64,000 bases of DNA from a virus (Duplodnaviria; Heunggongvirae; Uroviricota; Caudoviricetes). Position numbers and translations under genes: made by a program. Below, one piece after another: positions 2,434 to 38,722 of the stretch (the stretch's first letter is position 1; every line of letters begins with the position of its first letter). The notes below the pieces were generated by a model. It was not told the origin of the DNA and did no database searches. It saw nothing but the letters and a program-made list of their open reading frames with translations. The stretch is from IMG/VR virus record IMGVR_UViG_3300043036_000338, one strand, 5' to 3'.

Positions 2434-3440
2434 CTTGGCTGTCTCCCGCTATTAGTTCCTGGTGCACCGGTTAGTATGTCTTGTCTAAATTGATTCGGAT
2501 TCGAAATAGGTTCATCAAGAGGTATAATGGTATCAGCACCACCGCCGTAATCATCACTTGTATGAATTTGCACCTCAGTCATCTCTAATGATAATTCCAC
2601 AACAACAGGCTTACCACCTTTAAAAACGTTTAATTGTTCACCTCCATTATATCGTACATCAAACCCAGTGATCATACATGGTTTTAATTTATAATAATAA
2701 TCCTGATTAATACCAAGAAATGTAACCATAACAAGTTTTGGGTATTTAAGAAGTGCATGTGTTAAAGCAGCAGGACCTGCGGCACCAACATATGCCGGTA
2801 ACATATTTTTCTTAATTTCCTTAATAACATCTCTTAAAGCATCTGAATCTTTTTGACTTGACGGTGATAATCTCCAGTTAAAAGAATGGGATTTAAGTTT
2901 TACGCCTTTGAATTCCATTGTTTCAAATGAGTTAATAGCCTTACCCAAGAGAAGAGAACCTGTAGTTCCTGCTACTTGATTAGATACAACTGCAGTTCCA
3001 CCTAAAAATGTTGTAAGGGCTGCAGCTATTGGACCTTTAAGTTGAGAAGTCGCGGCAGCTGCGGATCCTGCCACATTTTTCATTAAATCAGCATAAAATC
3101 TAGCATTTGATTCAAAATCTTCACCGCCTTGATATGAACCAAAATCAGCTGCTGTACTTGTAATTGCTGCTATATTACCAGATACTGAACTTGCTTCAAT
3201 ACCTACAGAATCTCTTAATTGTAATGGTAATGGAAGAACAATAGAACCTTTTGAAATTTCATTTGCAAAATTTTCAGTGCCAAGTCCAATGTTTTCACTA
3301 TATATATATTCCTTGAAATTCATAAGCATAACATATGGAATAGCTTCTGATGCTGGGAATCTAAGATTATCAATTGCAGTAGTACTATTTCTTCGCGCTG
3401 CAGCTATTACATAGTTTGGATTTTCTACAAAATTGGGCAT
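2430..3440 (-). CDS. 48: baseplate tail-tube cap gp48-like
   Basis: IKKNMLPAYV...LKYPKLVMVTF matches T4 gp48 LKKGMLPRYV...LKYPHFFNLEL; LPLPLQL motif. Confidence 0.55.
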   Translation of the reverse strand: MPNFVENPNYVIAAARRNSTTAIDNLRFPASEAIPYVMLMNFKEYIYSENIGLGTENFANEISKGSIVLPLPLQLRDSVGIEASSVSGNIAAITSTAADFGSYQGGEDFESNARFYADLMKNVAGSAAAATSQLKGPIAAALTTFLGGTAVVSNQVAGTTGSLLLGKAINSFETMEFKGVKLKSHSFNWRLSPSSQKDSDALRDVIKEIKKNMLPAYVGAAGPAALTHALLKYPKLVMVTFLGINQDYYYKLKPCMITGFDVRYNGGEQLNVFKGGKPVVVELSLEMTEVQIHTSDDYGGGADTIIPLDEPISNPNQFRQDILTGAPGTNSGRQPR

Positions 3441-3491
3441 AGTATTCCTTTATAAATACATATAAGCTTTAACATATTTATATGGTTTTTC

Positions 3492-3950
3492 ATGGCAGCG
3501 TATCAAGGCAAATTTAAACCGAAGAATCCTTCTAAGTATAAGGGTGATCCTACAAATATTATTTATAGATCATCGTGGGAACTTAAGTTAATGGCATATT
3601 TGGATTCTCATCCGAATGTTATTAAATGGGGCTCGGAAGAGATTGTGATACCATATGAAAGTCCAGTTGACGGAAGAATGCATAGATACTTTCCAGACTT
3701 TTTTGTAGAGCAAATAAATAGAGATGGTAAAAAAGAAAAGATACTAATTGAAGTGAAACCAAAAGCACAGACAATAGCACCGAATCCAAGTACAAAGTTA
3801 ACACCCAAGGGAATGTTGAATAAAAAATATATCAATGAAGTTATGACTTACGGCGTGAATATGGCAAAGTGGAAGGCCGCTGAGGAAGTCTGCAAGGATC
3901 GTGGCTGGATTTTTCGAATTATGACGGAAATAGAACTAGGAATCAAGTAA
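3492..3950 (+). CDS. 4: head completion protein gp4-like
   Basis: KYKGDPTNIIYRSSWELKLMAYLD...WGSEEIVIPY conserved gp4 motifs; 152 aa. Confidence 0.65.
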   Translation: MAAYQGKFKPKNPSKYKGDPTNIIYRSSWELKLMAYLDSHPNVIKWGSEEIVIPYESPVDGRMHRYFPDFFVEQINRDGKKEKILIEVKPKAQTIAPNPSTKLTPKGMLNKKYINEVMTYGVNMAKWKAAEEVCKDRGWIFRIMTEIELGIK

Positions 3951-4549
3951 TGGCAATACTATTCGATACTATATTATCAAAGGGTATTCGAGAAGGAAAC
4001 ATTCCTGCTCGTACTCAAGAAGCACGTGATTGGTATCGTAACACCGCTCAACAGCAAGGCAAGATCAACGAAACATCACTGCTTAAAGGTAGTGATGCAA
4101 CTCGTTTTACTAGTTCTCCTAGAATTGGTCAGATGTATATGTTTACCTATAACCCAAAGCACAAGGATACTTTGCCATATTGGGATAGATTTCCTCTTGT
4201 ATTTCCATTCAGAAAAGTTCCAGGTGGATTTCTTGGTATGAATATGCACTATCTTCCATTGCCTTACAGAGCTAAGTTAATGGATGGCCTTTATTCCATT
4301 ACAAACAATACACTGTACAATGATACAACAAAGTTAAAGTTGAATTATGATTTATTAAATGGTGCTGCGCAATTTAAATACTTTAAACCAACAGTAAAGC
4401 ATTATTTAAGCGATCATCTGACAAGTAAATTCTTATACATATTTCCTGCAGAGTGGGACGTAGCACTTTTTCTTCCCTTATCAAGATTCCAAAAAGCGGC
4501 GAATCAAAAAGTTTGGGCAGATTCAGTCAAAATTATCAGAGGTCGTTAA
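3950..4549 (+). CDS. 2: DNA end protector gp2-like
   Basis: GQMYMFTYNPKHKDTLPYWDRFPLVF motif typical of gp2; ATGA overlap with gp4. Confidence 0.5.
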   Translation: MAILFDTILSKGIREGNIPARTQEARDWYRNTAQQQGKINETSLLKGSDATRFTSSPRIGQMYMFTYNPKHKDTLPYWDRFPLVFPFRKVPGGFLGMNMHYLPLPYRAKLMDGLYSITNNTLYNDTTKLKLNYDLLNGAAQFKYFKPTVKHYLSDHLTSKFLYIFPAEWDVALFLPLSRFQKAANQKVWADSVKIIRGR

Positions 4550-4550
4550 C

Positions 4551-5246
4551 ATGGTATTTAAATTATCAGAATTCAAAAGTTCACTCAATAGCTATGGAGT
4601 TGCTAAGACAAACACATATGAAGTAACAATTACGCCACCTCCTTTTGTACAAACATTTGCAAATATTAGTACTGAGGATTTAAGACAGTTATCACTTCGT
4701 TGTTCTTCTGTTCAGTTGCCAGAACTTGATCTCTTAACAATACCATATTATTCAAGAGTAACTGGTGTTGCAGAGAATCGTGTCATTGGTGCAAATCAGT
4801 TCAAAATAATTCCCATGGAATTTATTGTTGATGCAGATATGAAAAGTGCTAACTTTTTTCAAAGTTGGTTACAATTTATTGTTAACTATTACTCATCAGG
4901 AAGTCCCTTTAATTCAATTAATGATGCTGATCAATTACCATATGAAGTATCATATATTAATGAATATGCAGCAACCATTGATATTGACGTTTATCCTGGT
5001 GGTATGCAAGGTAATCCAGGTGAAGATGGTACCAATACTACTAAAATGCAGAAGTATAAATTAATTAAAGCATTCCCTGTGAACATGGGAAATATTTCGT
5101 TGAATTGGAATAATACTGATGCTACATCGACTATGATTCTTCCAATTGGTTTTACATACAGTGCAATTGAAGTTCCAAAAATAAATCGTGGAAAAAATCT
5201 AGATCCAATTTCTGCTAATGGTGCTGCACTTAGTGGCACTTTTTAA
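4551..5246 (+). CDS. virion structural protein (tail completion/tube-associated, gp3- or gp19-fold-like?)
   Basis: 231 aa in structural operon; N-terminus loosely like tube-family proteins. Confidence 0.3.
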   Translation: MVFKLSEFKSSLNSYGVAKTNTYEVTITPPPFVQTFANISTEDLRQLSLRCSSVQLPELDLLTIPYYSRVTGVAENRVIGANQFKIIPMEFIVDADMKSANFFQSWLQFIVNYYSSGSPFNSINDADQLPYEVSYINEYAATIDIDVYPGGMQGNPGEDGTNTTKMQKYKLIKAFPVNMGNISLNWNNTDATSTMILPIGFTYSAIEVPKINRGKNLDPISANGAALSGTF

Positions 5247-5271
5247 ACTTATAATATAGAAAGATTTTAAA

Positions 5272-5946
5272 ATGAGTTTACCAAAAATTGAACTACCACT
5301 ATTTGAATTGACAGTTCCATCAAGTGGTAAAAAAGTAAAATATAGACCGTATAATGTACGTGAAGAAAAGATCTTATTAGTAGCACAAGAGAGTGATGAT
5401 ATAGACCAAACAATATTGGCTATTAAGCAGATCATTACAAACTGTGTGTATGATCTTGATGTAAATGAAATTCCAATGTTTGATCTTGAATATATTATGT
5501 TAAATATTCGAGCAAAATCTGTTAATAATGAAATTGAATTTAATATCATTGATAATGAAACTGATGAAACAGTTACTTTGAAACTTGATATTAATAATAT
5601 AAAACTTATTCAGAATGAAAAGCATAGTAAAAAGATTGATCTTGATAATCATTATACTTTAATTATGAAATACCCTACAATTGATAAGATTAATAGTGGT
5701 GAAGATCTTGTTATTAATTGTATTGATGTTCTTGTCAGTAATGACGGCGAAAAGGTTTATAAGTTATCTGAATATACTAAAGAAGAAATTGAAAAATTTA
5801 TTGAAGAATTAAATCCAAAGAATATTGATTCAATCAAAGATTTTTTCAAAACAATACCAGTACTTAAAGTTGAAATACCATATAAAGATAAAACTGGTGT
5901 TGATAAAACTTTTGTATTGGAGGGATTGAGTAATTTTTTTACTTAA
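5272..5946 (+). CDS. putative baseplate hub subunit (gp26-like?)
   Basis: 224 aa, position in hub/baseplate operon; motif PLFELTVPSSGKKVKYRPYNVREEKILL. Confidence 0.25.
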   Translation: MSLPKIELPLFELTVPSSGKKVKYRPYNVREEKILLVAQESDDIDQTILAIKQIITNCVYDLDVNEIPMFDLEYIMLNIRAKSVNNEIEFNIIDNETDETVTLKLDINNIKLIQNEKHSKKIDLDNHYTLIMKYPTIDKINSGEDLVINCIDVLVSNDGEKVYKLSEYTKEEIEKFIEELNPKNIDSIKDFFKTIPVLKVEIPYKDKTGVDKTFVLEGLSNFFT

Positions 5947-6101
5947 TGGTGAGTCATACTTCTTTGATTCACCTATATACAAATATTTTTAAATTGGTAA
6001 CCATTCATAGATATGCATTAAGTGATATTGAAAACATGATACCATATGAATTAGAATTGTACATACATATGTTAACAGACCACATAGAGAAAGATAACTA
6101 A

Positions 6102-7496
6102 ATGGTAGAAGTAACCAGCAAACCAACTGATATATCTAAGATTCAAGATATTATGAATGCAATTAGTTCAAATGGTGGTTCAGATAAAACTGGGCTTATG
6201 GTAGATTATGCTGCTGGTTCAAAACTTGAAAGTGGTATCAATGAACTTAAAATGATTGGCAAAGAACAAGCTGTTTATCTTAAAAAAATGGTTGGTTATC
6301 AAGAAGCAATGCTTGGAAAGGCCAGAAGAGAAGATGTATCTAGTGCTGCAACGCCATCAAAAAAAGGTAAAAAAGATAATGATGAAGAAGAAAGTAAATC
6401 TGCTAGTTTAGGTTCGGTATTAGCAGCTGCTGGATCAGCAGGACTTATGTCATTACTTGGACCTTTAGGATTACAAGCTGCAGCAGGAATGTTACTTAGA
6501 GGTGGAGGTGGCGCTGACAAATTAAAGGGAGCACCTGGAAATGACCGACTGAATGTTAATGACACAAAACCAAAAACATCGACAAAATACTTAACTGTAG
6601 ATGAGCGTCTTGCAGCAATTGCCGAAGATAAGCGTCTTGCCACACTTGCTGAGCAAGCATCATCCAAACCAAAAACATCAACAAAATACTTAACTGTAGA
6701 TGAGCGTCTTGCAGCATTTGCTAAAGATAAACTTCTTGCATCAATTGATGATCTGAATACAGTGCCAAAACCAAAACTATCTACAAAATACTTAACTGTA
6801 GATGAGCATCTTGCAGCGCTCGGTGATAAAAAACCAACACTCAAACCAATGCCACCAATGAATGCTGGGTTAGAACCATTCAAATTAACACAAGATATGC
6901 GTGTTACCACTGAAGCCGCACCTAAAATATATCCTAAAATATCAGATGCACCAACAAAAGGTATAGTTAAGCCACCAAAAATGTCCAAAGTACCTGGCGC
7001 ACTTGGAGCATTATTATCAGGTGGTATGGGTTATTTTGATCAAGAATTAAAAGATGCCGGACTTGATGCCACACAAAGAATTCGTCAAGGTCTTCTTGAA
7101 TCTATTCCTGGCGCAATTGATATGTTTGTTCAAGGTTTAATCACAGATCCACTTAATAGCATAACAGGAAGAGGATTTGCCGCTGAGGAAGATAAGTTTA
7201 ATCTTGATATTACACCGGCATTTCGTAAATATATGTTGGCATCAATTGATGAAACGCCTAATAAAACAATAGCTGCAGCTCCAAATAGAATGACAGCATT
7301 TAAAACGGCTATGGCACCAACAACAGTACCTGATAAAACCCTTGCACAACCACAAGCAGCACCTATTATTATTGCACCGCCTGCAGCACCAGCATCATCT
7401 GTAGTGAACTCTAATAACCAACAGACCACCATTGTAAATCAAACAAAAAATGTGTCTGCATCGTTATACACACAGATGCTTGGTGGTAATCGGTAA
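6102..7496 (+). CDS. repeat-containing structural protein (possible tape-measure/hub gp29-like)
   Basis: 464 aa; Ala/Gly-rich hydrophobic segment; three tandem KPKTSTKYLTVDERLAA repeats. Confidence 0.3.
   Translation: MVEVTSKPTDISKIQDIMNAISSNGGSDKTGLMVDYAAGSKLESGINELKMIGKEQAVYLKKMVGYQEAMLGKARREDVSSAATPSKKGKKDNDEEESKSASLGSVLAAAGSAGLMSLLGPLGLQAAAGMLLRGGGGADKLKGAPGNDRLNVNDTKPKTSTKYLTVDERLAAIAEDKRLATLAEQASSKPKTSTKYLTVDERLAAFAKDKLLASIDDLNTVPKPKLSTKYLTVDEHLAALGDKKPTLKPMPPMNAGLEPFKLTQDMRVTTEAAPKIYPKISDAPTKGIVKPPKMSKVPGALGALLSGGMGYFDQELKDAGLDATQRIRQGLLESIPGAIDMFVQGLITDPLNSITGRGFAAEEDKFNLDITPAFRKYMLASIDETPNKTIAAAPNRMTAFKTAMAPTTVPDKTLAQPQAAPIIIAPPAAPASSVVNSNNQQTTIVNQTKNVSASLYTQMLGGNR
6567..6836 (+). 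repeat. three tandem ~100-bp in-frame repeats inside CDS 6102..7496
   Basis: aaaccaaaaacatcgacaaaatacttaactgtagatgagcgtcttgcagca... repeated 3x with substitutions. Confidence 0.7.
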
Positions 7497-9601: not shown

Positions 9602-9949
9602 TTAGAAACTAACAGTGGCGCCAATAACTACATCACCGAAGTTAAAATTCTCATCTGTAGATACATTTGCATACAAATTAAAACTGTCGTTCAAATCATA
9701 CGAAGCTTCAAGATCAAGACCGACAAAATATACATCAGCCAAATCAATATCGGTACCGATTGTCAAGTCGACAGAAGCAAGACTGTAATACAATGCTGGA
9801 GTTGCAGTCAATGCAATATCACCACCAGCGGTCAAATTGTATTCTGCATTGATGTCGGCGCCAACAGAGAAGCCATAGCCAAGGTCAGCAGCCATTGCAG
9901 AAACAGCGGTCATTGCAAGGATGGTAGTTGCAAGAAGAATCTTTTTCAT
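9602..9949 (-). CDS. small secreted/beta-rich protein with signal peptide
   Basis: MKKILLATTILAMTAVSAMA signal peptide; 115 aa. Confidence 0.45.
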   Translation of the reverse strand: MKKILLATTILAMTAVSAMAADLGYGFSVGADINAEYNLTAGGDIALTATPALYYSLASVDLTIGTDIDLADVYFVGLDLEASYDLNDSFNLYANVSTDENFNFGDVVIGATVSF

Positions 9950-9959
9950 AGTATTTCCT

Positions 9960-10265
9960 TTAATTATATAAACATGTTTAAGTGAGCCCGTTAGGTTATA
10001 CGGTGGAGCTCATACCGCAAGAGATTAAGCCGCTAGGCGAACCTCAGGTGCGAAATTTTCATTTGCCTTTAGTTTATTTAGCCGATACGAGGCCATCCGG
10101 TAAACTCCACTCTATCTTCACACCTGTCGATCCTAATTTCGACCCCAGCAAAGATACACTACCAGACGGCGTAAAGCCTATCCCCGTGTCAAAAGACCAT
10201 AAGCAGTGTATCTATGGTGGAGTCGTGCGGTACCGCCCCGCAGTCCAGAATGTGTCCATGTTGCT
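9960..10265 (-). ncRNA. ssrA: tmRNA (ssrA), apparently circularly permuted two-piece form
   Basis: minus strand: GGGGTCGAAATTAGGATCGAC (10146-10126) matches the tmRNA 5' consensus; tag frame GCA AAT GAA AAT TTC GCA CCT GAG GTT CGC CTA GCG GCT TAA = ANENFAPEVRLAA* (10066-10025); T-arm-like hairpin plus CGACTCCACCA 3' end (10246-10215) lies upstream of the GGGG 5' end and pairs with it, including G3:U70. Confidence 0.6.
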
Positions 10266-10321
10266 TCAATATTTACAAGTCTATTTATAACACCTTAATT
10301 AGTATATGTCAACCATTGTTT

Positions 10322-10621
10322 TCAAAGGTGTCCCCATGGTGTCCATGCTTTAGAATTATCAGTATCGGTAAAGTCATAGGTCTTTTCAAAGATGGCTTTA
10401 TCACAAATATAAAGTTCAGCATCAATACCCATCATGAGATAGTCACCAGCTTTACCTTGCTTGTAATTACCTTCAAGAGTATTGACACGGAACTCTTCAT
10501 GTATCTGTTTGGCATGAACAACAATAGGTCGTTTCATACAAGGTTGTAAATTATGCACATATTCATAAGTTTCAAACGTTTTCATATCAACCTCTATCAT
10601 ATCGCCTAATTGTTTCTTCAT
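10322..10621 (-). CDS. hypothetical protein
   Basis: ORF 99 aa. Confidence 0.35.
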   Translation of the reverse strand: MKKQLGDMIEVDMKTFETYEYVHNLQPCMKRPIVVHAKQIHEEFRVNTLEGNYKQGKAGDYLMMGIDAELYICDKAIFEKTYDFTDTDNSKAWTPWGHL

Positions 10622-16996: not shown

Positions 16997-17054
16997 TTGA
17001 TCTCTTCCCTTTTGGTTACATATACTTTATAATATAAACAAAAGTAAATGTCAA

Positions 17055-17083
17055 CAAAAAAGAGCGCCGAAGCGCTCTTTTTC
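17055..17083 (-). terminator. rho-independent terminator
   Basis: aaaaaaGAGCGCcgaaGCGCTCttttt; identical copies at 20260-20290 and 21925-21952. Confidence 0.6.
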
Positions 17084-17764: not shown

Positions 17765-18019
17765 TTATCCTATAATTACAGTACTTGATCCTGTAGCAGA
17801 ATGACCGCAGGATGCAGTATCACCAGTTTTGACTATTGACTTACCACCGATTTTAACACTTGATGTACCAGAAATAGTGGCTGCAGCATGAAGGCCAATA
17901 CCATGTGGTTGCACAGCATCACCATCTACAATCACTAATTTACCATTAAAGTAAACAGTTGATTGTGATGAAATTAATGCACCACCGGCCAAATCATTCT
18001 GAAGGCAAGCTGCCGGCAT
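17765..18019 (-). CDS. PAAR-repeat protein (gp5.4-like spike tip)
   Basis: MPAACLQNDLAGG...VDGDAVQPHG...GHSATGSS; 84 aa. Confidence 0.5.
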   Translation of the reverse strand: MPAACLQNDLAGGALISSQSTVYFNGKLVIVDGDAVQPHGIGLHAAATISGTSSVKIGGKSIVKTGDTASCGHSATGSSTVIIG

Positions 18020-18935: not shown

Positions 18936-19226
18936 TCAGTTGCGAGTTTCAATAGTACTATGTAAATGTGCCTTCTTGGCCTTTTTTAGTACGTCGTTAA
19001 ATCCGTCATCAATTCTACGGAAGCCTAATCGGACTGAGTCTCCAATAGATACCATTGGTGGTACTTGCATGTAATCTTGATTTTCTTCTAGGAATTTCTC
19101 TCTCTCTGCCAAAGATAAAATTTGTGTTACTTCTTCAAGGGTTTCCTTGTTACGAAAAGTATACGTCGGCAATATAATACTCCTTAATAAAAAAGGCGGC
19201 ATAGTAGCCGCCTTCACTTCCACCAT
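18936..19226 (-). CDS. hypothetical protein
   Basis: ORF 96 aa. Confidence 0.35.
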   Translation of the reverse strand: MVEVKAATMPPFLLRSIILPTYTFRNKETLEEVTQILSLAEREKFLEENQDYMQVPPMVSIGDSVRLGFRRIDDGFNDVLKKAKKAHLHSTIETRN

Positions 19227-19241
19227 AGGAGTATTTATAAT

Positions 19242-19832
19242 CTAATGAAAGAATGTAATCATCTCATAAATTTCCTTCCAGCCTTTTACAACAGGAACAT
19301 CTGGGTGAACAAAGTCTTTGTTATAGTCATGTTCAATTAGGACTGCCCACAAACCAAGATCATTACCACACACTGCGTTTTCTGGTTTATCTTCAATCCA
19401 GAAACAATCAGTATCTTTGTATGGAAGCAATGCCTGATCCTTATCAGCACCACAATCCAAGCAGATCACCTTTTCAAAGATGTTGGCGCCAAAGATTGAG
19501 TTCAGATTCTTCCGCCGAAGTTTGCCGGCATATTCATTGGTACTCAGTGAGGTAATGCAATGGAAAACAAACCCATGTTCCTCATGAAGTTTCCGAACAT
19601 ATTTAATAGCATCACGGAAAGGAGTAAGAGAACCAATGTTAGACGATTCATTGAACTGCCGAACAAAGGCCTTCATATCAGCCTTTGGAATGTCATATGT
19701 AATTGCCAAATCATATACACCATCAACCTTTTTGGTGTATCCATGTTCTTTCATGTAATTGTCAAATGAGTATACCCAATCAAGAAGAACACCATCACAA
19801 TCGGTTAGGATCACTTTATCTTTCAGTTTCAT
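19242..19832 (-). CDS. HAD-superfamily 5'(3')-deoxyribonucleotidase-like phosphatase
   Basis: N-terminal DCDGVLLDW HAD motif I; 196 aa. Confidence 0.5.
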   Translation of the reverse strand: MKLKDKVILTDCDGVLLDWVYSFDNYMKEHGYTKKVDGVYDLAITYDIPKADMKAFVRQFNESSNIGSLTPFRDAIKYVRKLHEEHGFVFHCITSLSTNEYAGKLRRKNLNSIFGANIFEKVICLDCGADKDQALLPYKDTDCFWIEDKPENAVCGNDLGLWAVLIEHDYNKDFVHPDVPVVKGWKEIYEMITFFH

Positions 19833-20203
19833 TTTGCACCTTTCAGGTTCATTTCAACTTCTTCAAACTTTTTATTCCGTGGTGCATAAAACCAAATGTC
19901 ACCATCCCAGAGATATAAATATTGTGCACCTGTGTCTGCATGACCTTCGTTCAGATATTCATCAACAGAATTGAAAGTTTCTGGACGATCATTATGGGCC
20001 GCTCCAGCACGGCTCTGAGCATAGTCATGATATAGAGCCGAAAGATAACCACCGTAGGCAACCTTTTGTGCGCCGAGTTCAGTGTTATACGAATCAACAA
20101 GTGTTGCGCCAACACCGTCAACATAGCCATCAAAGTGTACATACGAGGCAATAACTTTGCCGGTGCCCTTGTCAAAATGGCCGATCATTGCAGAAGTACC
20201 CAT
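19829..20203 (-). CDS. hypothetical protein immediately downstream of rtcB
   Basis: ORF 124 aa, own early promoter at 20215-20260. Confidence 0.4.
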   Translation of the reverse strand: MGTSAMIGHFDKGTGKVIASYVHFDGYVDGVGATLVDSYNTELGAQKVAYGGYLSALYHDYAQSRAGAAHNDRPETFNSVDEYLNEGHADTGAQYLYLWDGDIWFYAPRNKKFEEVEMNLKGAK

Positions 20204-20259
20204 GTCATTTCCTTTTCATTGGTTACATATATCTTATAAAACAACTACAACCCATTGTC

Positions 20260-20290
20260 AACAAAAAAGAGCGCCGAAGCGCTCTTTTCT
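20260..20290 (-). terminator. rho-independent terminator followed directly by early promoter -35
   Basis: GAGCGCcgaaGCGCTC hairpin plus T-run then GTTGACA. Confidence 0.6.
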
Positions 20291-21663
20291 CACATTTTTT
20301 TCCACGACTTTTCAAAGTTACCAGCCATGATGTTACCATATGGCATGATACGATCAACAGTCACAGCCAAACCAAAACCCAACATATCAGCCTGAACAGT
20401 AGCAGCACTTTTGTAAGCACTTGGCAATTCACTGATGTCAGGTATTCCAGACCAGAACCGAGCATCAATACCACGAGTTTCCTGTGCTACCAATTCGGCT
20501 TCAGACAAGGTCTGTTGACGAGCAAATTGTGAACGACTGAAGATACGACCGGCACCGTGTGGTGCAAAACCTATCTCATTGTCGGCATGTGCCTTAACAA
20601 ACAAAATTGGCTCAGCCATGTTCATAGGAACAATTTGAGTGTCATATGGGTCACGCAACAAAGCAGTGTTAACAGGTGTAGAACCTTTGGCGTGATATAC
20701 CAATTGATCATCACTTGGGTCACGGAATACAAAGTTGTGTGGAGTAAAGATACGATCAGTACCAGAAACAGACAAACGACTCAACACAGCATCATGCAAA
20801 CTGTTATGGTTAGCACGAGTCCAATCGTGGGCAATCTCCAAAGCATCCCAATATTCAACACCTTCGTCAGTGTCCAATGGAATCCAGGCATTCTGCTTCA
20901 ACGTTTTTGGGCTCATTTGAATCCGAAACTTTTCAGCAATCTCCATACCTTTTTTATAGATACCAGCGCCAAAACCACGGCTACCGAAGTGCGAGATCAA
21001 CCAAACATCACCAGTGTTTTCACTACGGCCAACAGATATAAAATGGTTACCATCGCCAGAGGTGCGCAAATGACTCATAGAAGCATTTACAGTTTTTTGA
21101 TCACGAGTAAAGCGGTTAACCAAAATGCGATCCAACAAACTCAAGTCAATTTGTTCAACAGGAGTCGAATGGCCACCAGGACCAAAGTGACTCAATTCAT
21201 GTGCAACATTCAATACATCCAAAGGATCAACATCACCGAAGTTGGTGGCACTCATAGAGCAACACACATCAGCTGAGTGCATGCCAGGATGGATAGCATT
21301 ACGAGTCACAACCATACCACCCACTGGGATAGTACCAATTGAACCTGCAGGACAAGCATCTGGCATTACCGAAGCACTTACAACTGTGGGAGTCTTGACC
21401 AATTCAGCCATAGTAGCCATTACAGCATTGTAGTTTGCGGTCTCGTATTCATCACCTTGTGACAAAAATACATTAATAGCAATATTGTCTTGCAATGGCA
21501 TATACACTGGTTCTACAGGCATATTTCGTTGGATAATGTCAGCCAAGACAGAGTCATCAACTACAGCAATCTGACGCAATTCTTTCAGGATCTTACCGAT
21601 ATGTGGACCTGGCTTTACACCACGGTCAATCAAATCTTTGCCAGTCCAAACATATTGTTCCAT
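20290..21663 (-). CDS. rtcB: RNA-splicing ligase RtcB
   Basis: 457 aa; HNFVFRD, FAPHGAGRIFSRSQ and other RtcB conserved His/Cys motifs. Confidence 0.85.
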   Translation of the reverse strand: MEQYVWTGKDLIDRGVKPGPHIGKILKELRQIAVVDDSVLADIIQRNMPVEPVYMPLQDNIAINVFLSQGDEYETANYNAVMATMAELVKTPTVVSASVMPDACPAGSIGTIPVGGMVVTRNAIHPGMHSADVCCSMSATNFGDVDPLDVLNVAHELSHFGPGGHSTPVEQIDLSLLDRILVNRFTRDQKTVNASMSHLRTSGDGNHFISVGRSENTGDVWLISHFGSRGFGAGIYKKGMEIAEKFRIQMSPKTLKQNAWIPLDTDEGVEYWDALEIAHDWTRANHNSLHDAVLSRLSVSGTDRIFTPHNFVFRDPSDDQLVYHAKGSTPVNTALLRDPYDTQIVPMNMAEPILFVKAHADNEIGFAPHGAGRIFSRSQFARQQTLSEAELVAQETRGIDARFWSGIPDISELPSAYKSAATVQADMLGFGLAVTVDRIMPYGNIMAGNFEKSWKKM

Positions 21664-21674
21664 AGTTATTCTCC

Positions 21675-21872
21675 TTAAAGACTGTTGATACGTTCAACTT
21701 CACCGCTTTGGATGTCTTTCATTGCCCGAAAATATCCTTGAGTATTGGCACGTGACATTTCTTTAAGCAGAAGATCAGCAAGACGATCTACACCATACAG
21801 ATTAAAAGGAATATCAGATTCAAGGGATCCTTCAATCAAACTGATAAGGTCATTGCGAGTCATCATGATCAT
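21675..21872 (-). CDS. hypothetical small protein
   Basis: ORF 65 aa with early promoter. Confidence 0.3.
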   Translation of the reverse strand: MIMMTRNDLISLIEGSLESDIPFNLYGVDRLADLLLKEMSRANTQGYFRAMKDIQSGEVERINSL

Positions 21873-21951
21873 TTCCTCTATTGGTTACATATACTATATA
21901 AAACAAATAGAACCCATTGTCAACAAAAAAGAGCGCCGAAGCGCTCTTTTC

Positions 21952-22170
21952 TCACATTTTTTTCCATGTCTTGTTGTCGACCACAGGAGTATCAAGTTCA
22001 TCTAGATACTGACTACGCTGATTCAACTTTTCTCTCCGTTTGTCACGAATGGATTGTTTCTTGTCATCATAGTCAAAGTCTGGAGCCCAATCACTACCAT
22101 AATCTTCTGCATAGGCATTACGCTTTTTCGACATCGCTTTTCTCATTAATAATGTTACCGAATGCTTCAT
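21952..22170 (-). CDS. hypothetical small basic protein
   Basis: ORF 72 aa. Confidence 0.3.
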   Translation of the reverse strand: MKHSVTLLMRKAMSKKRNAYAEDYGSDWAPDFDYDDKKQSIRDKRREKLNQRSQYLDELDTPVVDNKTWKKM

Positions 22171-25010: not shown

Positions 25011-25949
25011 TCAACCACTTTTTTGCAAAATGTTGTGCATTAGATTCTTCCATTGAATTGCACGATTATCCCAACTATAGACCACATCAGCAATTGACTT
25101 TTCAACGGCAAGATTATTCATATGTTTTGATAGCATAGTTTTATCATTGTGGATCATAATTGCTTGTCGAAGATTGTTATAGAAAATCATTGCGTGAGTA
25201 TTTGGATCTTCATGATAGTCATACATATGAGTAAGACTCAATGATGTTTCTGGTAGCGCAGCCAACGATGAGTGGACACAAGTAAGCCCAGCAGACATTG
25301 CTTCAATAAGAACTAGGCATGATGTTTCAGCCCATGTAGATGGATAAGCAAGAATATGATTGCGCTTGAGTTCTTCACGAATCTGATCATTTGATACTGA
25401 TTTGCTATAATTGATCTGAGGATGATCCTCAAGTTTCTTAAATAGATCCTTGTGTTGTTCATCACGCTCGGGCCATGCATATAGATCAAATGAACTGAAT
25501 ATATTCAATTCTAAGTTTGGAAACTCTTTTGCCAATGGAACAAAAGCTGCATATAGAATATCCAACCCACGATGGGGAGTAGAGTAATACATCAGACGAA
25601 TTTTGTCTGTTGGCTTAGTATGTTCTTCAATTGGAGTGATTGCATTTTTCAATACAACACCAGCTGAAGGTGGCACACCAAGATAATCAAAGAATTGTTG
25701 TTTCTGCCAATGACTTACAAAGACAAGTTTGTCAAAGTTTTTCCAACCACCATTACGTAGATGATCATGCATAGGATCAAGTGCAAGGTCATGTAATACC
25801 AAAATGTTCTTCTTGGTAAAACTAATATTTGTTTCACGTGAATGCATAATATTAAAATGTGAAAGTAACTCGGCAGGGAGAGTATTAATTCTCCCTGCCA
25901 TCAGTTCAGTGCCGCCTCTTGGCTTTAATTCAGACATCATATCCGGCAT
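25011..25949 (-). CDS. glycosyltransferase (GT-B, family 1/4-like)
   Basis: LIEAMSAGLTCVHSS E-x7-E type motif region. Confidence 0.45.
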   Translation of the reverse strand: MPDMMSELKPRGGTELMAGRINTLPAELLSHFNIMHSRETNISFTKKNILVLHDLALDPMHDHLRNGGWKNFDKLVFVSHWQKQQFFDYLGVPPSAGVVLKNAITPIEEHTKPTDKIRLMYYSTPHRGLDILYAAFVPLAKEFPNLELNIFSSFDLYAWPERDEQHKDLFKKLEDHPQINYSKSVSNDQIREELKRNHILAYPSTWAETSCLVLIEAMSAGLTCVHSSLAALPETSLSLTHMYDYHEDPNTHAMIFYNNLRQAIMIHNDKTMLSKHMNNLAVEKSIADVVYSWDNRAIQWKNLMHNILQKSG

Positions 25950-26325
25950 ACTCTTCTTCTAAGTCTAGATGGTCAAAGATCACGCCGTTTACTGAAATGA
26001 GAGAGTCCCATCTGAATGAGCGCCAGCCTTGATTAATCAAATCAAATACAGCCACGACATCAGGATTTGTTGCTTTCTTTTGTACTGCTTCTTCAAGACC
26101 AACTTGATCAGGAAGAGATTCTGCTTTCAGTGTTGCAGTCATAACACGAACTGTGCCATCCTTCTTTACAAATTCCAGATCAACAGTTTCAGTGTGTAGC
26201 AGTTCAAGTACTTTAGATTTTTCCATTACCATAGTCTCCCATTGTGTTTTCAATTTCAGCGGCAAAGTCAGTATAGCCACCAATGTAACGATCATCCCAC
26301 CAGATTTGTGGTAGGGTCTTAACAC
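25930..26325 (-). CDS. hypothetical protein (true start probably internal)
   Basis: ORF 131 aa overlapping neighbours. Confidence 0.3.
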   Translation of the reverse strand: MLRPYHKSGGMIVTLVAILTLPLKLKTQWETMVMEKSKVLELLHTETVDLEFVKKDGTVRVMTATLKAESLPDQVGLEEAVQKKATNPDVVAVFDLINQGWRSFRWDSLISVNGVIFDHLDLEEEYAGYDV

Positions 26326-28432: not shown

Positions 28433-28572
28433 CCAACAACTTGGTCAGCAGGTTCACCAAAAAGCCAAGCAAAGAAATACACTACACCTATAACAATCAA
28501 CACATCAACAAGGCTTGAAAAGCTCACATTCCGCAGACCTTCAACAAAACCTTCTTTAAACTTATTCCACAT
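28387..28572 (-). CDS. small membrane protein
   Basis: 61 aa, two hydrophobic helices. Confidence 0.3.
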   Translation of the reverse strand: MWNKFKEGFVEGLRNVSFSSLVDVLIVIGVVYFFAWLFGEPADQVVGWVALGLAVGVGAKR

Positions 28573-29015
28573 CAGAAATCCTCCGTTCCTTGATACACAT
28601 CAGCAACAAACACACCATTCTCACGCAGCATCTTCACAACACGAGGACGGTCATCAAACCACAGATCAGGCTTTTGGCCCCAATCAAGAACAATATGTGC
28701 CAGAAGTAAACTCTTGACAATGTCGTCTGACCGATGATCTTTCTCCGCCCTCATGTATAATTTCTTAAACCTAATGTTATGTCTGTTCAACCAGTTTTCA
28801 GTTACTTCACGATTTTCTTCACCACGACCAGTGCACAGGATAACATGATGGCCTAGAAGAGACATGCTACGAGCCATAAAGCAAATCGGTTCAATAGGTA
28901 TGTCATTGATCATTTCCGACTTGAACATATTCCAGTTCTTTGGTTCTTCACGCCAGTAATGAACACGGTGGCTCAGATCAGCAAGTGTACCATCAATATC
29001 GAAACAGATCAGCAT
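28572..29015 (-). CDS. HAD-superfamily phosphatase (Pnkp 3'-phosphatase-like/nucleotidase)
   Basis: FDIDGTL motif I at N-terminus; 147 aa. Confidence 0.5.
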   Translation of the reverse strand: MLICFDIDGTLADLSHRVHYWREEPKNWNMFKSEMINDIPIEPICFMARSMSLLGHHVILCTGRGEENREVTENWLNRHNIRFKKLYMRAEKDHRSDDIVKSLLLAHIVLDWGQKPDLWFDDRPRVVKMLRENGVFVADVYQGTEDF

Positions 29016-29017
29016 AG

Positions 29018-29299
29018 TTATTCTCCTTCAAACCCGATCAACTCAACCACCGTATAACAAGGGGCCACAGTAAACGGCAAACCAAATTTATCTTTTTTGA
29101 ACAAACCCCACAAAAAGTCATAGATGGCTTGTTCAGCTTCTTTACGAGTTTCAAATTGTTTGTCTGAGTATTCATCACCAAACAAGAATTCACCTGGAGT
29201 ACCTTCAGACCAGTTAGAAGCAACAGGGCGGATCATCAAGCCTTCTTTAGTTAATTGACGGATTACATAAACTCTGGTCAACATGGTTATTTCCTTCAT
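29018..29299 (-). CDS. hypothetical small protein
   Basis: ORF 93 aa with early promoter. Confidence 0.35.
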   Translation of the reverse strand: MKEITMLTRVYVIRQLTKEGLMIRPVASNWSEGTPGEFLFGDEYSDKQFETRKEAEQAIYDFLWGLFKKDKFGLPFTVAPCYTVVELIGFEGE

Positions 29300-29344
29300 T
29301 GGTTACATATACTTTATAAAACAATTCAAAGCAAATGTCAACAA

Positions 29345-29668
29345 CTATTTTTGTAAAAAGAATAATATAAGCCAAAAGGCTGACATTATTGTGAACACAC
29401 TCACAGCAATAAAGATTTGTCCATTAACTGCATCTCTCAAGTCTCGTTTTACTTTTTGAGTTGTATTAATTTGTTCTTGTAACATTCTATAATATTTCTG
29501 GGACTCAGTTCGAGCTTGAGTAACCAGCTGTGCCCACTGCTCGTCTCGCTCTTGGTCAATTGGTGCATCAGCTTTCAAACCTTTCTTGCGAGCCATGCGA
29601 AGGCAAGCAATAGCTTCATCTTCGGAAGTGGTGCTTAGAGCCTTGGCTATTAGTTGATTAGCACTCAT
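29345..29668 (-). CDS. hypothetical protein with C-terminal TM
   Basis: ORF 107 aa. Confidence 0.35.
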   Translation of the reverse strand: MSANQLIAKALSTTSEDEAIACLRMARKKGLKADAPIDQERDEQWAQLVTQARTESQKYYRMLQEQINTTQKVKRDLRDAVNGQIFIAVSVFTIMSAFWLILFFLQK

Positions 29669-30042
29669 TTTCTGAACTCCAAGTAATTGTTCAACAGACC
29701 TTCGATGTTCGCTTTACCGATAAGATTCTTTGAGTGAACATAGAATGCAAAGTCTGCAGGGAACTGCATATGTGGTTCATCAGGAAAGTCAAGGGCATCA
29801 TTAATTAGCCTTTTGGCAAGCACATTTCCTGTCAGTTGATTTACACCCAAGTCATGGTCAAACGAGATAAACTTAGGCATACTGCATCGGCTGATGATCA
29901 TTCTACTTGCAGATGAAACACTCCGAACAACCACCCACTCTTCATTACGATACATTTCTTGAACCTGCCAAGGAGCCCAAGTCACATCAGCAGGCATTCT
30001 TTCATCATCTAGAAATAGATTCCAAGTCATGTCAATATCCAC
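29665..30042 (-). CDS. hypothetical protein
   Basis: ORF 125 aa. Confidence 0.35.
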   Translation of the reverse strand: MDIDMTWNLFLDDERMPADVTWAPWQVQEMYRNEEWVVVRSVSSASRMIISRCSMPKFISFDHDLGVNQLTGNVLAKRLINDALDFPDEPHMQFPADFAFYVHSKNLIGKANIEGLLNNYLEFRK

Positions 30043-30302
30043 TTAAAAATTTCAGAGTCGACCATAATAGTGCCGAAATACAAAAGAGATGGGCTAAAGT
30101 CCTTGTTGTTGCGGAAAGCATGGCAATATGCGATAAAACAAGTAATCATTTTGACACACAGACTCCATCTATACCTTTCCATAACCCTGTGAACCTTGAA
30201 TTTTTTCCAATGCATCTTGACATGTTTTGAAAGAATTAAAATCTATCATAGCAATTGTATGTGCACCAGAGACTCCCCACCCAACTAAAATAAGAACATA
30301 CA

Positions 30303-30605
30303 TCATTTCCACACCTGTGCTGTCACATCATACCCATCAAAACGAGACACAAGGATCACATCATATCCTTCAAGTTCTGCTACATGCTTTTTCAGATGCC
30401 GTCTAAACGCTTTGTAACTACGGCAAGGCGCATGGGTAGACCCACTCCATTTCACGTCAAGTGTAGAAGTCACCCACCGACGAGTTTCATAGCACCACCA
30501 CAGAGGTGGCTGATCTTTATCACGAGTCCATGTTGTAATCCCCATGAAGCGACTGTTCATAATCCGTTCACGAATACCAGCTTCAAAGCCAATCATCATT
30601 TTCAT
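30303..30605 (-). CDS. hypothetical protein
   Basis: ORF 100 aa. Confidence 0.35.
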   Translation of the reverse strand: MKMMIGFEAGIRERIMNSRFMGITTWTRDKDQPPLWWCYETRRWVTSTLDVKWSGSTHAPCRSYKAFRRHLKKHVAELEGYDVILVSRFDGYDVTAQVWK

Positions 30606-30606
30606 T

Positions 30607-30798
30607 TTATACCTCCACGGCAGTTACAGTATCATCAGCTTGTTCATAATAGTCAGGAGCAGTTGCAGCAGTATTCTTATCGTCATACCACTTAATACGA
30701 GCTTTGGCTTCTTGCAGTGTATCAAAGTCTTCGGTCCAATGGTCTTGACCCCAACCACGTTCAGACGATAGACATTTAATCCGAAACTTGACAGTCAT
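30607..30798 (-). CDS. hypothetical small protein
   Basis: ORF 63 aa. Confidence 0.3.
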   Translation of the reverse strand: MTVKFRIKCLSSERGWGQDHWTEDFDTLQEAKARIKWYDDKNTAATAPDYYEQADDTVTAVEV

Positions 30799-30810
30799 AG
30801 TGTATTCCTT

Positions 30811-31074
30811 TCAATAAGCAAAATCGGGGTGAGAACGACCATATGTATCACGAGTTCCAATAACCTCAGTACGTTTGATAAAAGACTTCATTTTCTTTGG
30901 AGTTCCATAAGTCTTAACAGCTTTTTCAGGGTTTTTGAGAACGATATTTGCCACAGCATATTTCAGAACATCACGATATTCTTTTGGTGTGGCATCATAG
31001 AGTTCCATTATTTCTTGGGAAGTACGTTTTGGACCTTTTGGAAAACCTGTTACACCGTTGTTGTTAATTGTCAT
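30811..31074 (-). CDS. hypothetical small protein
   Basis: ORF 87 aa. Confidence 0.35.
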   Translation of the reverse strand: MTINNNGVTGFPKGPKRTSQEIMELYDATPKEYRDVLKYAVANIVLKNPEKAVKTYGTPKKMKSFIKRTEVIGTRDTYGRSHPDFAY

Positions 31075-31082
31075 TGTTTATC

Positions 31083-31421
31083 TCACTCAGCTTCTGTTAC
31101 TTCAATTGCCACTACATGGAATTCAGCAGGACCTTCATCTGCATACCACTCGTCTTCTGGGTCAAACCAGCAAAAGTCAGACAGTGGAATAAAACTAATT
31201 CCATTAGGACCTTTAGAATTGACAAAATACCGTTTAGTTTTGAAAGTGCTATGACGGCCCATTTCACTTACAGACACTTCAACTAAACGACTTGTGACGT
31301 CACAACAAATGCCGTCGATTTCAATAACTCTGATGTCAGTCAGTACTTTACCACCAGCTTTGTAAACATGGTGGCCATATTCATCTTCAAAGTAAATAGT
31401 GTGTTTCATCTTCATCTCCAT
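31083..31421 (-). CDS. hypothetical protein
   Basis: ORF 112 aa, early promoter upstream. Confidence 0.35.
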   Translation of the reverse strand: MEMKMKHTIYFEDEYGHHVYKAGGKVLTDIRVIEIDGICCDVTSRLVEVSVSEMGRHSTFKTKRYFVNSKGPNGISFIPLSDFCWFDPEDEWYADEGPAEFHVVAIEVTEAE

Positions 31422-31469
31422 TTGATATATACTTTATAAAACAAATCAAAGCAAATGTCAACAACTAAA

Positions 31470-31498
31470 TGCAAAAAAGGCGACCGAAGCCGCCTTTT
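31470..31498 (-). terminator. rho-independent terminator
   Basis: aaaaaAGGCGaccgaagCCGCCTTttgtttt. Confidence 0.5.
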
Positions 31499-31520
31499 GT
31501 TTTATAATATATTCAAAATG

Positions 31521-32465
31521 TTACTTAACTACATCCATGAAAGGCACAGTCGAGTCAGGAATCATAGTGGTTGGCAGTGCACCATTCCAGCGTTCGGCTT
31601 GGATCAGAGCAATCAAACCAGCATTATCTTTCAGAGCTTCTGCTTTTGCCTTAATAGCACTTGCCTCGGCTTCACCTTGGATACGAGTTGCCTCTGCAGC
31701 AGCCTTTGCTTCGGCAAGTTTTGAGTCAGCCGCGGCTTGAGCTTGGATCACAGTAATCTCTGCAGTGATCTTTTCACGCTCGGCATTTTGTTTGACCTTC
31801 TGAACTTCAACTTCTGCTTCCATACGGGCAGCAATTGCACGCTCATAACCGTCATCAAAGTCGATGTTTTCAATCTGAACGGATTCGATGATGATAGGAC
31901 CTTTGACCGATTCCATCAAAGCAGTCGAAACTTCATTGACCAACCGACCACGCTCATTGATAGCAGTCACAGCATTGAAGCGACCAAACACATTTTTTAC
32001 AGCTTGCGGGACTTGACGGTCAAGCAAACGATTCACAACACCTTCAGCGCCACCATATTCACCATAAATGGTTTCAACTTGATCAGCTGGCAAGCGATAG
32101 TTGACTGAGATCATCAAGCTAGCAGTTTGCTGGTCTTTCGAGTAAGTCTGGACATTTTCATAAGTGCGAGCTTGAGACTGCACACTGATGTCGACAACAG
32201 AGTCGATCACAGGCATCTTAAAGCCAAGACCAGGTTCAGCAGTGCCAACAACAGCACCGTTGCGCAGCTGCACACCACGATAACCTTCACCTACAGTATA
32301 CCACGAACCACCAAGAACGGTCAGGGCAACAAGACCAGCAACAGCAGCAACACCGGATCCAACAACAGCATTCATTTTCATTTTCCTTACATATTGATTA
32401 TAACGTTTTTTAGCAGCTTCGTATTCCGCATTAGTTTTGAAGTCCCAACGTTCGGGTTTATTCAT
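31521..32465 (-). CDS. SPFH/band-7 (prohibitin/HflC-like) membrane protein
   Basis: N-terminal TM, SPFH core (YRGVQLRNGAVVGTAEPGLGFKMP...), C-terminal A/E/K-rich coiled coil. Confidence 0.75.
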   Translation of the reverse strand: MNKPERWDFKTNAEYEAAKKRYNQYVRKMKMNAVVGSGVAAVAGLVALTVLGGSWYTVGEGYRGVQLRNGAVVGTAEPGLGFKMPVIDSVVDISVQSQARTYENVQTYSKDQQTASLMISVNYRLPADQVETIYGEYGGAEGVVNRLLDRQVPQAVKNVFGRFNAVTAINERGRLVNEVSTALMESVKGPIIIESVQIENIDFDDGYERAIAARMEAEVEVQKVKQNAEREKITAEITVIQAQAAADSKLAEAKAAAEATRIQGEAEASAIKAKAEALKDNAGLIALIQAERWNGALPTTMIPDSTVPFMDVVK

Positions 32466-34450: not shown

Positions 34451-34828
34451 TCAGTTAATATCCTCATCTTGCCATTCTTTTGTATATATTACGTTCGAGG
34501 GGCGATTGTACTTCTCAACAAGAGGCTTGATCTGATCACGACGATAACCAGCAAGGCCACAGCCAATAGGAGTCAGCATAAACTCGTCGTCAGGATGCGC
34601 TTCTGCATGTCTTAAAAACTCAGCAATGTAAAGCTCAATCTGATTTAGAGGCAAAGTATTTAATTGCCTATCCTTGGTTGGCAGAGCATACGACATACCG
34701 GTACGGCCAACACCAACACCATACTCTGCGCCATAATAGTTCATAGCATAAAGAGCTGCACCAGCGCCATGACGACCAGCAAGGTTCGATCCGAATACGA
34801 AAATCTTAGTCATTCTTTGTTCTCCCAA
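34451..34828 (-). CDS. hypothetical Rossmann-like protein (FVFGSNLAGRHGAGAA motif)
   Basis: ORF 125 aa. Confidence 0.35.
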   Translation of the reverse strand: MGEQRMTKIFVFGSNLAGRHGAGAALYAMNYYGAEYGVGVGRTGMSYALPTKDRQLNTLPLNQIELYIAEFLRHAEAHPDDEFMLTPIGCGLAGYRRDQIKPLVEKYNRPSNVIYTKEWQDEDIN

Positions 34829-38392: not shown

Positions 38393-38722
38393 CTACTTTA
38401 TAATATAGTCAAGATTAAGCCAGTCAGTATCTTCTGGCATCAATTCAACTTCAAACAATGTACTTTCTTTCATGTGAGTCCAAATGCCTGAATTGTTCCT
38501 ACGAATACAATATGCAGTTTTGATACACTCATAGCAGGAGCCAGATGCGCCATAAAACAAGAATGAATGTTCACTCTCCTCAACACGAACAATACCACTG
38601 TTAATCCGCCAAGTGTCACTGTCAAGATACCCACCGGATGTCCCAGCAAGAATACGATAATGAGTTGGTTCATCGTTATATTTGTATTTAATCACAACCC
38701 AATTATCTGGAATGTATGTCAT
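38393..38722 (-). CDS. hypothetical protein
   Basis: ORF 109 aa. Confidence 0.35.
   Translation of the reverse strand: MTYIPDNWVVIKYKYNDEPTHYRILAGTSGGYLDSDTWRINSGIVRVEESEHSFLFYGASGSCYECIKTAYCIRRNNSGIWTHMKESTLFEVELMPEDTDWLNLDYIIK

Follow-up and report, generated by a model that had tools for sequence, protein, structure and literature searches.

What does an RtcB RNA ligase do in a T4-like phage, and do the genes that lie beside it share in its task? The question is raised by the virus record IMGVR_UViG_3300043036_000338, of which we analysed a 64-kb stretch (the window) and about 10 kb more of the larger genome; the contigs of relatives extend to 146-190 kb. As a GTP/Mn2+-dependent ligase, RtcB connects RNA ends bearing a 2',3'-cyclic phosphate or a 3'-phosphate directly to 5'-OH ends. 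A first-pass annotation had made rtcB the centre of an RNA-repair module: the 124-residue product of the next open reading frame (ORF), orf124, might be its cofactor, and RtcB with two HAD-superfamily phosphatases, the first of them (HAD196) adjoining orf124, and a calcineurin-like phosphoesterase would replace the Pnkp and Rnl1 of phage T4. We find that rtcB and a small gene ahead of it, orf65, are bounded by two copies of a repeat of the promoter-early stem-loop (PeSL) type, and that very close relatives have the same site without the two genes. The reading we favour, at a probability of roughly two in three, is that the pair is an accessory cassette whose RtcB acts as a lone, one-step sealer of RNA.

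An intact RtcB of a divergent clade

The ORFs of rtcB, orf124 and HAD196 lie on the minus strand at exactly the positions first given for them (Table 1), and the identification of RtcB was sound. Its product matched Pfam PF01139 with 112.6 bits (cut-off 27, E 3.5e-32) over residues 189-445 only, and aligned over its full length with PHROG 1075, 'tRNA splicing ligase' (6e-78). An AlphaFold2 (AF2) model of the protein (pLDDT 89.6) was matched by Foldseek to the RtcBs of human, P. horikoshii and T. thermophilus (8odo, 4dwr, 1uc2 and 2epg; E about 1e-24 to 1e-17, TM 0.60-0.71), human RTCB 8odo giving E 8.7e-24 and TM 0.71. Across 33 aligned clade members D132, C134/C135, N206-H207, H225-GSRG, H309-N310, K326, H369-GAGR and the motif ELPxAYK are invariant. 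H225, H309 and H369 align directly with H234, H329 and the guanylylated H404 (HGAGR) of the P. horikoshii enzyme, whose metal ligands D95, C98, H203, H234 and H329 have as counterparts D132, C135, H207 (assigned by motif recognition), H225 and H309. The gene is under purifying selection, with a dN/dS of 0.13 relative to a metagenomic copy that is 93% identical (in contig L012). RtcB is thus intact and, from its sequence and model, looks active; it is probably a functional ligase.

Members of the clade are about 460 residues long. The window protein is lengthened at its N-terminus by a helical stretch of about 60 residues, and in 8 of the 33 members the N-terminal module weakly matched tRNA_NucTran2_2, a model of the tail of CCA-adding enzymes (best E 2.5e-5). 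RtcB scored far below the NCBIfam equivalog cut-offs of NF007153 (64.2 vs 407 bits) and of the PrfH-linked TIGR03073 (37.5 vs 271.8 bits), and the clade therefore differs from both E. coli-type and PrfH-linked RtcB. It is widespread in Flavobacteriia and Rhodobacterales (46-51% identity over the full length), where a Polaribacter member sits in a repair operon of the order WYL, RtcB, RlaP, RlaP. Phage members, with 40-52% identity over the full length, occur in Tenacibaculum phages PTm1 and PTm5, Cellulophaga phages phi38:1 and Calle, and Rhizobium RHph phages; 530 phage records carry an RtcB. We also considered base composition as a sign of horizontal origin and rejected it as weak evidence: rtcB has a GC content of 43.5%, vs 38.3% in the window as a whole, and an unremarkable GC3.

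A repeat-bounded cassette with an empty site in close relatives

A 93-nt direct repeat, in two copies that are 92% identical, flanks orf65 and rtcB. On the coding strand each copy runs from the last codons of the preceding gene (WKKM-stop) through a GC-rich hairpin with a UUCG loop and U-run (-17.4 kcal/mol, z -4.2), a promoter-like TTGACA-17-TATAAG or TATATA and a conserved leader to a ribosome-binding site and the next ATG. PeSL mobile cassettes and their shuffling have been documented in T4-type phages (PMC2839356, PMC4122927). Identical 29-nt cores occur three times in the window, vs none expected by chance, and a variant PeSL-like element follows the Band-7 gene (about 31433-31498). A scan of viral contigs for the core found it at eight loci. 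Between the two repeats orf65, which had no family match in Pfam or PHROG scans, and rtcB would form a single transcription unit, probably expressed early from the sigma70-type promoter of the upstream copy, and the downstream copy is predicted to drive orf124 and HAD196.

Two very close relatives, L112 and L107, lack orf65 and rtcB and retain a single PeSL. The site is thus occupied in one phage and empty in the others, in otherwise closely matching surroundings: RNase H, DUF6433, orf124 and HAD196 are 98.6, 98.6, 95 and 96% identical in L112 and 96, 84, 85 and 95% identical in L107, and the genes flanking the empty site in L112 are 95-100% identical to those of the window. The L112 junction joins the left half of the upstream copy to the right half of the downstream copy, a hybrid that is the exact product of recombination between the two repeats. 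Compared with another relative, L010, homology ends and restarts exactly at the repeats, and L010 and L011 have three unrelated small ORFs where the window has orf65 and rtcB.

The cassette also varies internally. An unrelated 65-aa ORF (L012, 3611-3808) replaces orf65 (21675-21872) in the contig with the 93% identical RtcB, where the flanks are 87% identical in DNA. The dS of RtcB between the two is 0.31, half or less of that of the flanking genes (0.64-0.90), as would be expected had the cassette been exchanged more recently. Both orf72, which precedes the upstream copy, and rtcB end in WKKM-stop (21952-21966 and 20290-20304) since 15 nt of each gene fall within the repeat. The orf72 homologue ends in RKRF-stop or GKKF-stop in L012 and L107, and this difference suggests gene conversion between PeSL copies.

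What the cassette may do

On the account we prefer, the cassette occupies a hyperplastic slot between DUF6433/orf72 and orf124, and recombination between its repeats would delete or insert it. The empty site with its single PeSL is seen in near-identical phages, and in other relatives the slot is filled by different genes or RtcB lies elsewhere. Once expressed, RtcB would most likely rejoin RNAs that metal-independent RNases of the host have cut, be they host tRNAs, the 23-27 tRNAs that the phage encodes or RNAs of other kinds; anticodon nucleases, HEPN RNases and toxin RNases are candidates. The first-pass annotation had likewise proposed RNA repair as a counter-defence, and this still appears the most plausible role of the intact ligase; its view of the neighbouring genes as partners in a module does not survive (see below). 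Repair of tRNA by phage RtcB has been proposed, not demonstrated (PMC7824862, PMC3203893), and RtcB has already been set out, together with tRNAs, ROT/TROVE proteins, cREC, HAD and calcineurin-like enzymes, as RNA-repair counter-defence (PMC7824862, PMC9503650).

Several points weigh against this account. The Pfam RtcB model spans only the C-terminal 57% of the protein. The match of D132 and C135 to metal ligands comes from a weak segment of a hidden Markov model alignment, from invariance in the clade and from motif recognition, and the clade has Cys at the His position of the canonical MPDxH motif (MPDACP vs MPDxHxG). Promoter and terminator activity of the PeSL copies is read from sequence alone, recombination could have run in either direction, and ligation and counter-defence are proposed here from genes and models. 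We know of no host nuclease for this phage. Finally, the 3'-phosphatase and cREC protein encoded in the same window would compete with RtcB for its substrate ends.

RtcB at other sites, and possible ribonucleoprotein partners

In related phages RtcB also lies elsewhere. L014 has counterparts of window genes, among them Band-7 at 64% identity and the metallophosphoesterase at 56%, and its RtcB, of 74% identity, lies directly after Band-7, behind another terminator-promoter. The same position in the window has a PeSL-like element without RtcB, several relatives have the same PeSL core after Band-7, and Band-7 can itself fill the slot between DUF6433 and orf124. L028 (IMGVR_UViG_3300043137_000214, 3068-6139), with a ribonucleotide reductase large subunit 86% and a DUF2828 protein 94% identical to those of the window, has another member of the RtcB clade, of 50% identity, immediately ahead of a tRNA-like element and the DUF2828 gene. 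In all, three sites in the phage group hold an RtcB, which argues that the gene has been repeatedly selected.

For a count of co-occurrence, all ORFs of the window were searched against 80 viral loci with this RtcB clade and their 10-kb flanks. One ORF of 125 residues (34451-34828, minus strand; FVFGSNLAGRHGAGAA...IGCGLAGY) had no Pfam match, and in 6 of the 80 loci a homologue lies no more than 10 kb from RtcB; the homologues are about 1.1 kb or less upstream of RtcB in L095, L101 and L105, and two genes upstream in RHph_X66.

Does RtcB then work with ribonucleoprotein partners that cassette shuffling has scattered? These would be the DUF2828 protein, with its von Willebrand A (vWA) domain, as a 'Ro-like' protein, the tRNA-like RNA upstream of its gene and possibly Band-7, by analogy with two bacterial systems. 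A system of RtcB, Band-7 and a b7a-tRNA was reportedly among the predictions of Burroughs and Aravind in 2016. The other precedent is the bacterial rsr-yrlA-rtcB linkage (bioRxiv 10.1101/312249); tRNA mimics of the Y-RNA/YrlA type lie beside Ro60, in phages also (PMC4201824). The placement of RtcB in L028 and L014 speaks for such a partnership, as do the presence of Band-7 within 10 kb of RtcB in six of the 80 loci and the conservation of the tRNA-like element with two compensatory pairs. On balance we think it unlikely.

The DUF2828 protein had been called Ro60. That name was not confirmed: Pfam recognised DUF2828 and DUF7788 only, with no TROVE match, and neither the single sequence nor a 15-sequence profile found Ro60 in the PDB. 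DUF2828 is also very abundant, with at least 7944 homologues, while RtcB occurs in just some of the phage's close relatives, and the two were near each other in one of the 80 loci. The tRNA-like element recurs in L028 (4555-4640), L124 and L128. It scored 18.1 bits against the Rfam tRNA model (threshold 29 bits), and Rfam recognised it above threshold neither as YrlA nor as tRNA. Its proposed structure is conserved, with 96% of cells paired and two compensatory pairs, from only four distinct sequences; 21 of 500 shuffles reach this covariation. We regard it as a candidate Y-RNA-like partner of the DUF2828 protein.

For Band-7, no RNA resembling b7a-tRNA was found at Rfam E<=1 in the window at 28-35 kb or in L014, nor by ARAGORN in L014. 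RtcB and Band-7 are about 10 kb apart in the window rather than adjacent, and the proposed partners as a whole lie 10-28 kb apart. A more specific form of the idea, to which we give still less credence, is that RtcB cooperates with an undescribed viral particle of the Ro/Y-RNA type, made of the non-TROVE DUF2828-vWA protein and the upstream tRNA-Thr-like RNA, with rtcB hopping between PeSL sites and landing once, in L028, beside the pair. If this were true, the hopping would provide natural near-isogenic phages with and without the capacity to seal RNA.

A possible but less likely role in the phage's own nucleic acid metabolism

Alternatively, RtcB might serve the phage itself, by maturing or repairing its tRNAs or its two-piece tmRNA, or by sealing DNA breaks with 3'-phosphate and 5'-OH ends. 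The phage encodes possible substrates: the large tRNA set and the tmRNA of the first-pass annotation were both borne out, as 23-27 tRNA genes and a permuted tmRNA. DNA ends that carry a 3'-phosphate can likewise be acted on by RtcB. The basic cycle does not depend on the gene, however, since RtcB is missing from near-identical phages in which the flanking genes are the same. In the tRNA genes of the window ARAGORN found no intron, and two-piece tmRNAs are not known to be ligated. We consider this role improbable, and prefer a lone RtcB that acts on RNAs cut by the host.

The neighbours of rtcB belong to the phage backbone

Do the genes downstream of rtcB assist it? RtcB, orf124 and HAD196 are adjacent on one strand, and orf124 has a confident, compact predicted fold (AF2 pLDDT 93) and no assigned function, as might suit a cofactor. 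A profile search placed it in PHROG 1987, and an MGT N-terminus and a YxHxDGY motif are invariant in the alignment of its family. Comparison with PDB folds gave no confident match, its structural relatives being uncharacterised phage proteins, and it resembles archease in neither sequence nor fold, in line with the first description of it. Neither archease nor RtcA or RtcR genes were detected in the window.

HAD196 is a HAD phosphatase by its motifs, D11 and D13 (DxD), K131 and D148, which are invariant in eight homologues; it had no match in Pfam at E<=0.01, HAD models included. Its profile was weakly closest in the PDB to the mitochondrial 5'(3')-deoxyribonucleotidase 1mh9 (end to end, E 0.04). 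Homologues are present in 745 phage records, and they keep with PhoH across distant phages: the order is RNase H...HAD...PhoH in Sinorhizobium phage phiN3, and HAD adjoins PhoH in Pseudomonas phage PA5oct. This company, and the weak resemblance to deoxynucleoside monophosphate nucleotidases, sit poorly with a dedicated partner of RtcB.

Synteny in the relatives points the same way. L010 and L011 keep RNase H, DUF6433, the orf72 homologue, orf124, HAD, orf96 and PhoH without RtcB. Without RtcB, orf124 is present in L006-L011, L107, L112 and L113, and in four of these (L010, L107, L112 and L113) orf124 and HAD stay together with PhoH. Conversely, RtcB loci at 74%, 55% and 41-48% identity (L001-L003 and L014-L016) have no orf124 or HAD homologue alongside, and in the co-occurrence count orf124 was near RtcB in none of the 80 loci and HAD196 in one. 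A predicted terminator and promoter separate rtcB from orf124, which with HAD196 probably forms a transcription unit of its own that ends in a terminator-like hairpin. We conclude that orf124 and HAD196 are a backbone pair unrelated to RtcB, with translational coupling predicted from their overlap. The hairpin lies within orf96 (18936-19226, minus strand) as called; the orf96 start is probably about 18 codons later, and in relatives the product is called at 78 aa.

Other members of the supposed toolkit

The second HAD phosphatase (28572-29015) is real and can be named more precisely, as the phosphatase domain of Pnkp. In the PDB it matched Pnkp1 (4xrp, 3.8e-9) and residues 162-296 of T4 Pnkp (5uj0/1ltq), with DxDGT, (S/T)GR and DDR aligned; no N-terminal P-loop kinase domain was found in it, and the flanking ORFs had no family match. 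The calcineurin-like phosphoesterase held up by PHROG and more weakly by Pfam, where it fell below the cut-off (Table 1). At the start of its gene there is an overlap with the 3' end of an ORF for a stand-alone DNA-ligase-like NAD+-binding Ia domain (38719-39024, minus strand; PF22745, 3.7e-13).

cREC, HAD and calcineurin-like enzymes have been proposed as processors of RNA ends in phages, and a cyclic-phosphate-processing role has been predicted for cREC (PMC7824862, PMC9503650). The Pnkp-type phosphatase, cREC and Band-7 genes of the window are on one strand within less than 4 kb (28572-32465). Near RtcB, homologues of the Pnkp-type phosphatase, cREC and the metallophosphoesterase were found in one, two and five of the 80 loci, respectively. 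The genes listed as an RNA-repair module lie scattered across some 30 kb with unrelated genes in between, and hence do not constitute one. Moreover, RtcB needs no healing of ends, and a Pnkp-type 3'-phosphatase would destroy the 3'-phosphate on which RtcB depends, which makes it a misfit for one pathway with RtcB. The phosphatase, cREC and the others would be easier to place in nucleotide metabolism or in a healing route apart from RtcB.

In the part of the genome covered here, the phosphatase half of Pnkp is present, and Rnl1, Rnl2 and polynucleotide kinase were not found among about 75 window ORFs scanned with Pfam and PHROGs; in the genome as a whole RtcB may or may not stand in place of Pnkp and Rnl. 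RtcB and Rnl2 co-occur in other phages (PMC7824862), as we also saw in the phage records. The proposal that RtcB, orf124 and the adjacent HAD form a repair module, which with the second HAD and the metallophosphoesterase replaces T4 Pnkp and Rnl1, is thus largely refuted by synteny and in our view very improbable.

Features of the window

Table 1. Positions of the cassette, its neighbours and other features discussed in the text.
Feature	Position	Strand	Remarks
rtcB, 457 aa	20290-21663	-	Divergent clade of the 3'-phosphate/5'-OH RNA ligase family; by Pfam, PHROG and Foldseek
orf65, 65 aa	21675-21872	-	Ahead of rtcB; stop codon overlaps rtcB Shine-Dalgarno AAGGAG
Upstream PeSL copy	21880-21972	-	Last codons of orf72 (WKKM-stop); hairpin 21927-21950; predicted -35 TTGACA 21918-21923; predicted -10 TATATA 21895-21900
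Downstream PeSL copy	20218-20310	-	Last codons of rtcB (WKKM-stop); hairpin 20265-20288; predicted -35 TTGACA 20256-20261; predicted -10 TATAAG 20233-20238
Third PeSL copy	17026-17077	-	Identical 29-nt core 17049-17077; downstream of PD-(D/E)XK gene
orf124, 124 aa	19829-20203	-	Backbone gene; PHROG 1987; stop overlaps HAD196 start by 4 nt
HAD196, 196 aa	19242-19832	-	HAD-superfamily phosphatase by motifs and PDB profile; backbone gene, PhoH-linked
Terminator-like hairpin	19192-19215	-	Ends orf124-HAD196 unit; -17.8 kcal/mol, z -4.2; inside called 5' end of orf96
Pnkp-type polynucleotide 3'-phosphatase domain, 147 aa	28572-29015	-	Stand-alone; PF25109 9.5e-24; no kinase domain
cREC domain	29665-30042	-	Predicted cyclic-phosphate-processing receiver; PF20274 3e-16; PHROG 1479
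Band-7/SPFH	31521-32465	-	Pfam 7.8e-32
Metallophosphoesterase	39021-39671		PHROG 1649 8e-32; Pfam 18.5 bits, below cut-off of 21.5
DUF2828+DUF7788 protein	48538-49965	-	Helical N-domain and vWA domain with MIDAS DVSGS
tRNA-Thr-like element, 74 nt	50087-50160	-	Conserved; upstream of DUF2828 gene; outer stem, D-arm, anticodon arm, small hairpin
tmRNA, permuted	9934-10330	-	Two-piece, alphaproteobacterial type; Rfam tmRNA_permuted 99.6 bits; tag peptide ANENFAPEVRLAA

The window belongs to a marine phage of the T4 superfamily. Nearly all of its genes are on the minus strand, and it encodes gp32, gp59, baseplate genes, RNase H, PhoH, ribonucleotide reductase and ThyX; the leftward extension beyond the window leads into baseplate genes, to the right the search for an extension yielded short contigs alone, and the synteny is Kyanoviridae- and Emdodecavirus-like. 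A megablast search of the region for near-identity among 50,697 phage records gave no match.

Five genes resemble homing endonucleases (NUMOD3, GIY-YIG/SegE-like and T5orf172; 39771-40532, 45578-46210, 53816-54331, 54851-55381 and 57188-57610), of which three lie within the tRNA array and two immediately beyond it. Other genes encode a ferritin-like protein (53067-53501), a TnsA-like endonuclease among the baseplate genes (3492-3950, plus strand), a PAAR spike-tip protein beside PhoH (17765-18019, minus strand) and a WYL_2 domain protein (25930-26325, minus strand).

Comparison with known systems

Since 530 phage records already hold an RtcB, one more adds little. What makes this locus useful is that near-identical phages differ by orf65 and RtcB, and so offer matched plus and minus genomes in which RtcB can be tested against host RNases. 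It also carries a caution: adjacency in the hyperplastic regions of T4-like phages is not to be read as operon function.

Compared with the cellular RtcBs of E. coli, P. horikoshii and human, the window protein has the same predicted fold and conserves residues that match the metal-ligand and guanylyl-histidine motifs. In contrast, it is only 15-20% identical to them, has the additional N-terminal helical module of about 60 residues, and reads MPDACP. As in other large phages, including the Tenacibaculum, Cellulophaga and Rhizobium phages with RtcBs of the same clade and also the cluster K mycobacteriophages, rtcB is an accessory gene. The neighbourhoods differ, and in the window the gene lies between PeSL repeats, with an empty site documented in relatives.

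The anti-PrrC pathway of T4, Pnkp with Rnl1, presumably has the same purpose, the resealing of cuts with 2',3'-cyclic-phosphate and 5'-OH ends, and the window encodes a homologue of the Pnkp phosphatase domain. RtcB, however, would seal such cuts directly, without healing, and neither a kinase nor Rnl1 or Rnl2 was detected in the 64 kb. The bacterial rsr(Ro60)-yrlA-rtcBA and RtcB-Band-7-b7a-tRNA arrangements have likenesses only in the relatives, namely the vWA protein and tRNA-like RNA by RtcB in L028 and Band-7 by RtcB in L014. In the window the genes are not adjacent, and the protein is DUF2828, not TROVE.

Further parallels are with the PeSL of the phage pairs phi1/RB49, PST/T4 and nt-1/KVP40. 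There a terminator hairpin with an early sigma70-type promoter, as predicted here too, is repeated in hyperplastic regions and marks the boundaries of insertions and deletions between related phages. The elements of the window differ in sequence and lineage, and what they carry is a recognisable enzyme, RtcB, not an ORFan. Phage RtcB, the idea of counter-defence and PeSL shuffling were all known before; this locus adds the clean plus/minus polymorphism of the cassette and the repeated re-placement of RtcB in one phage group.

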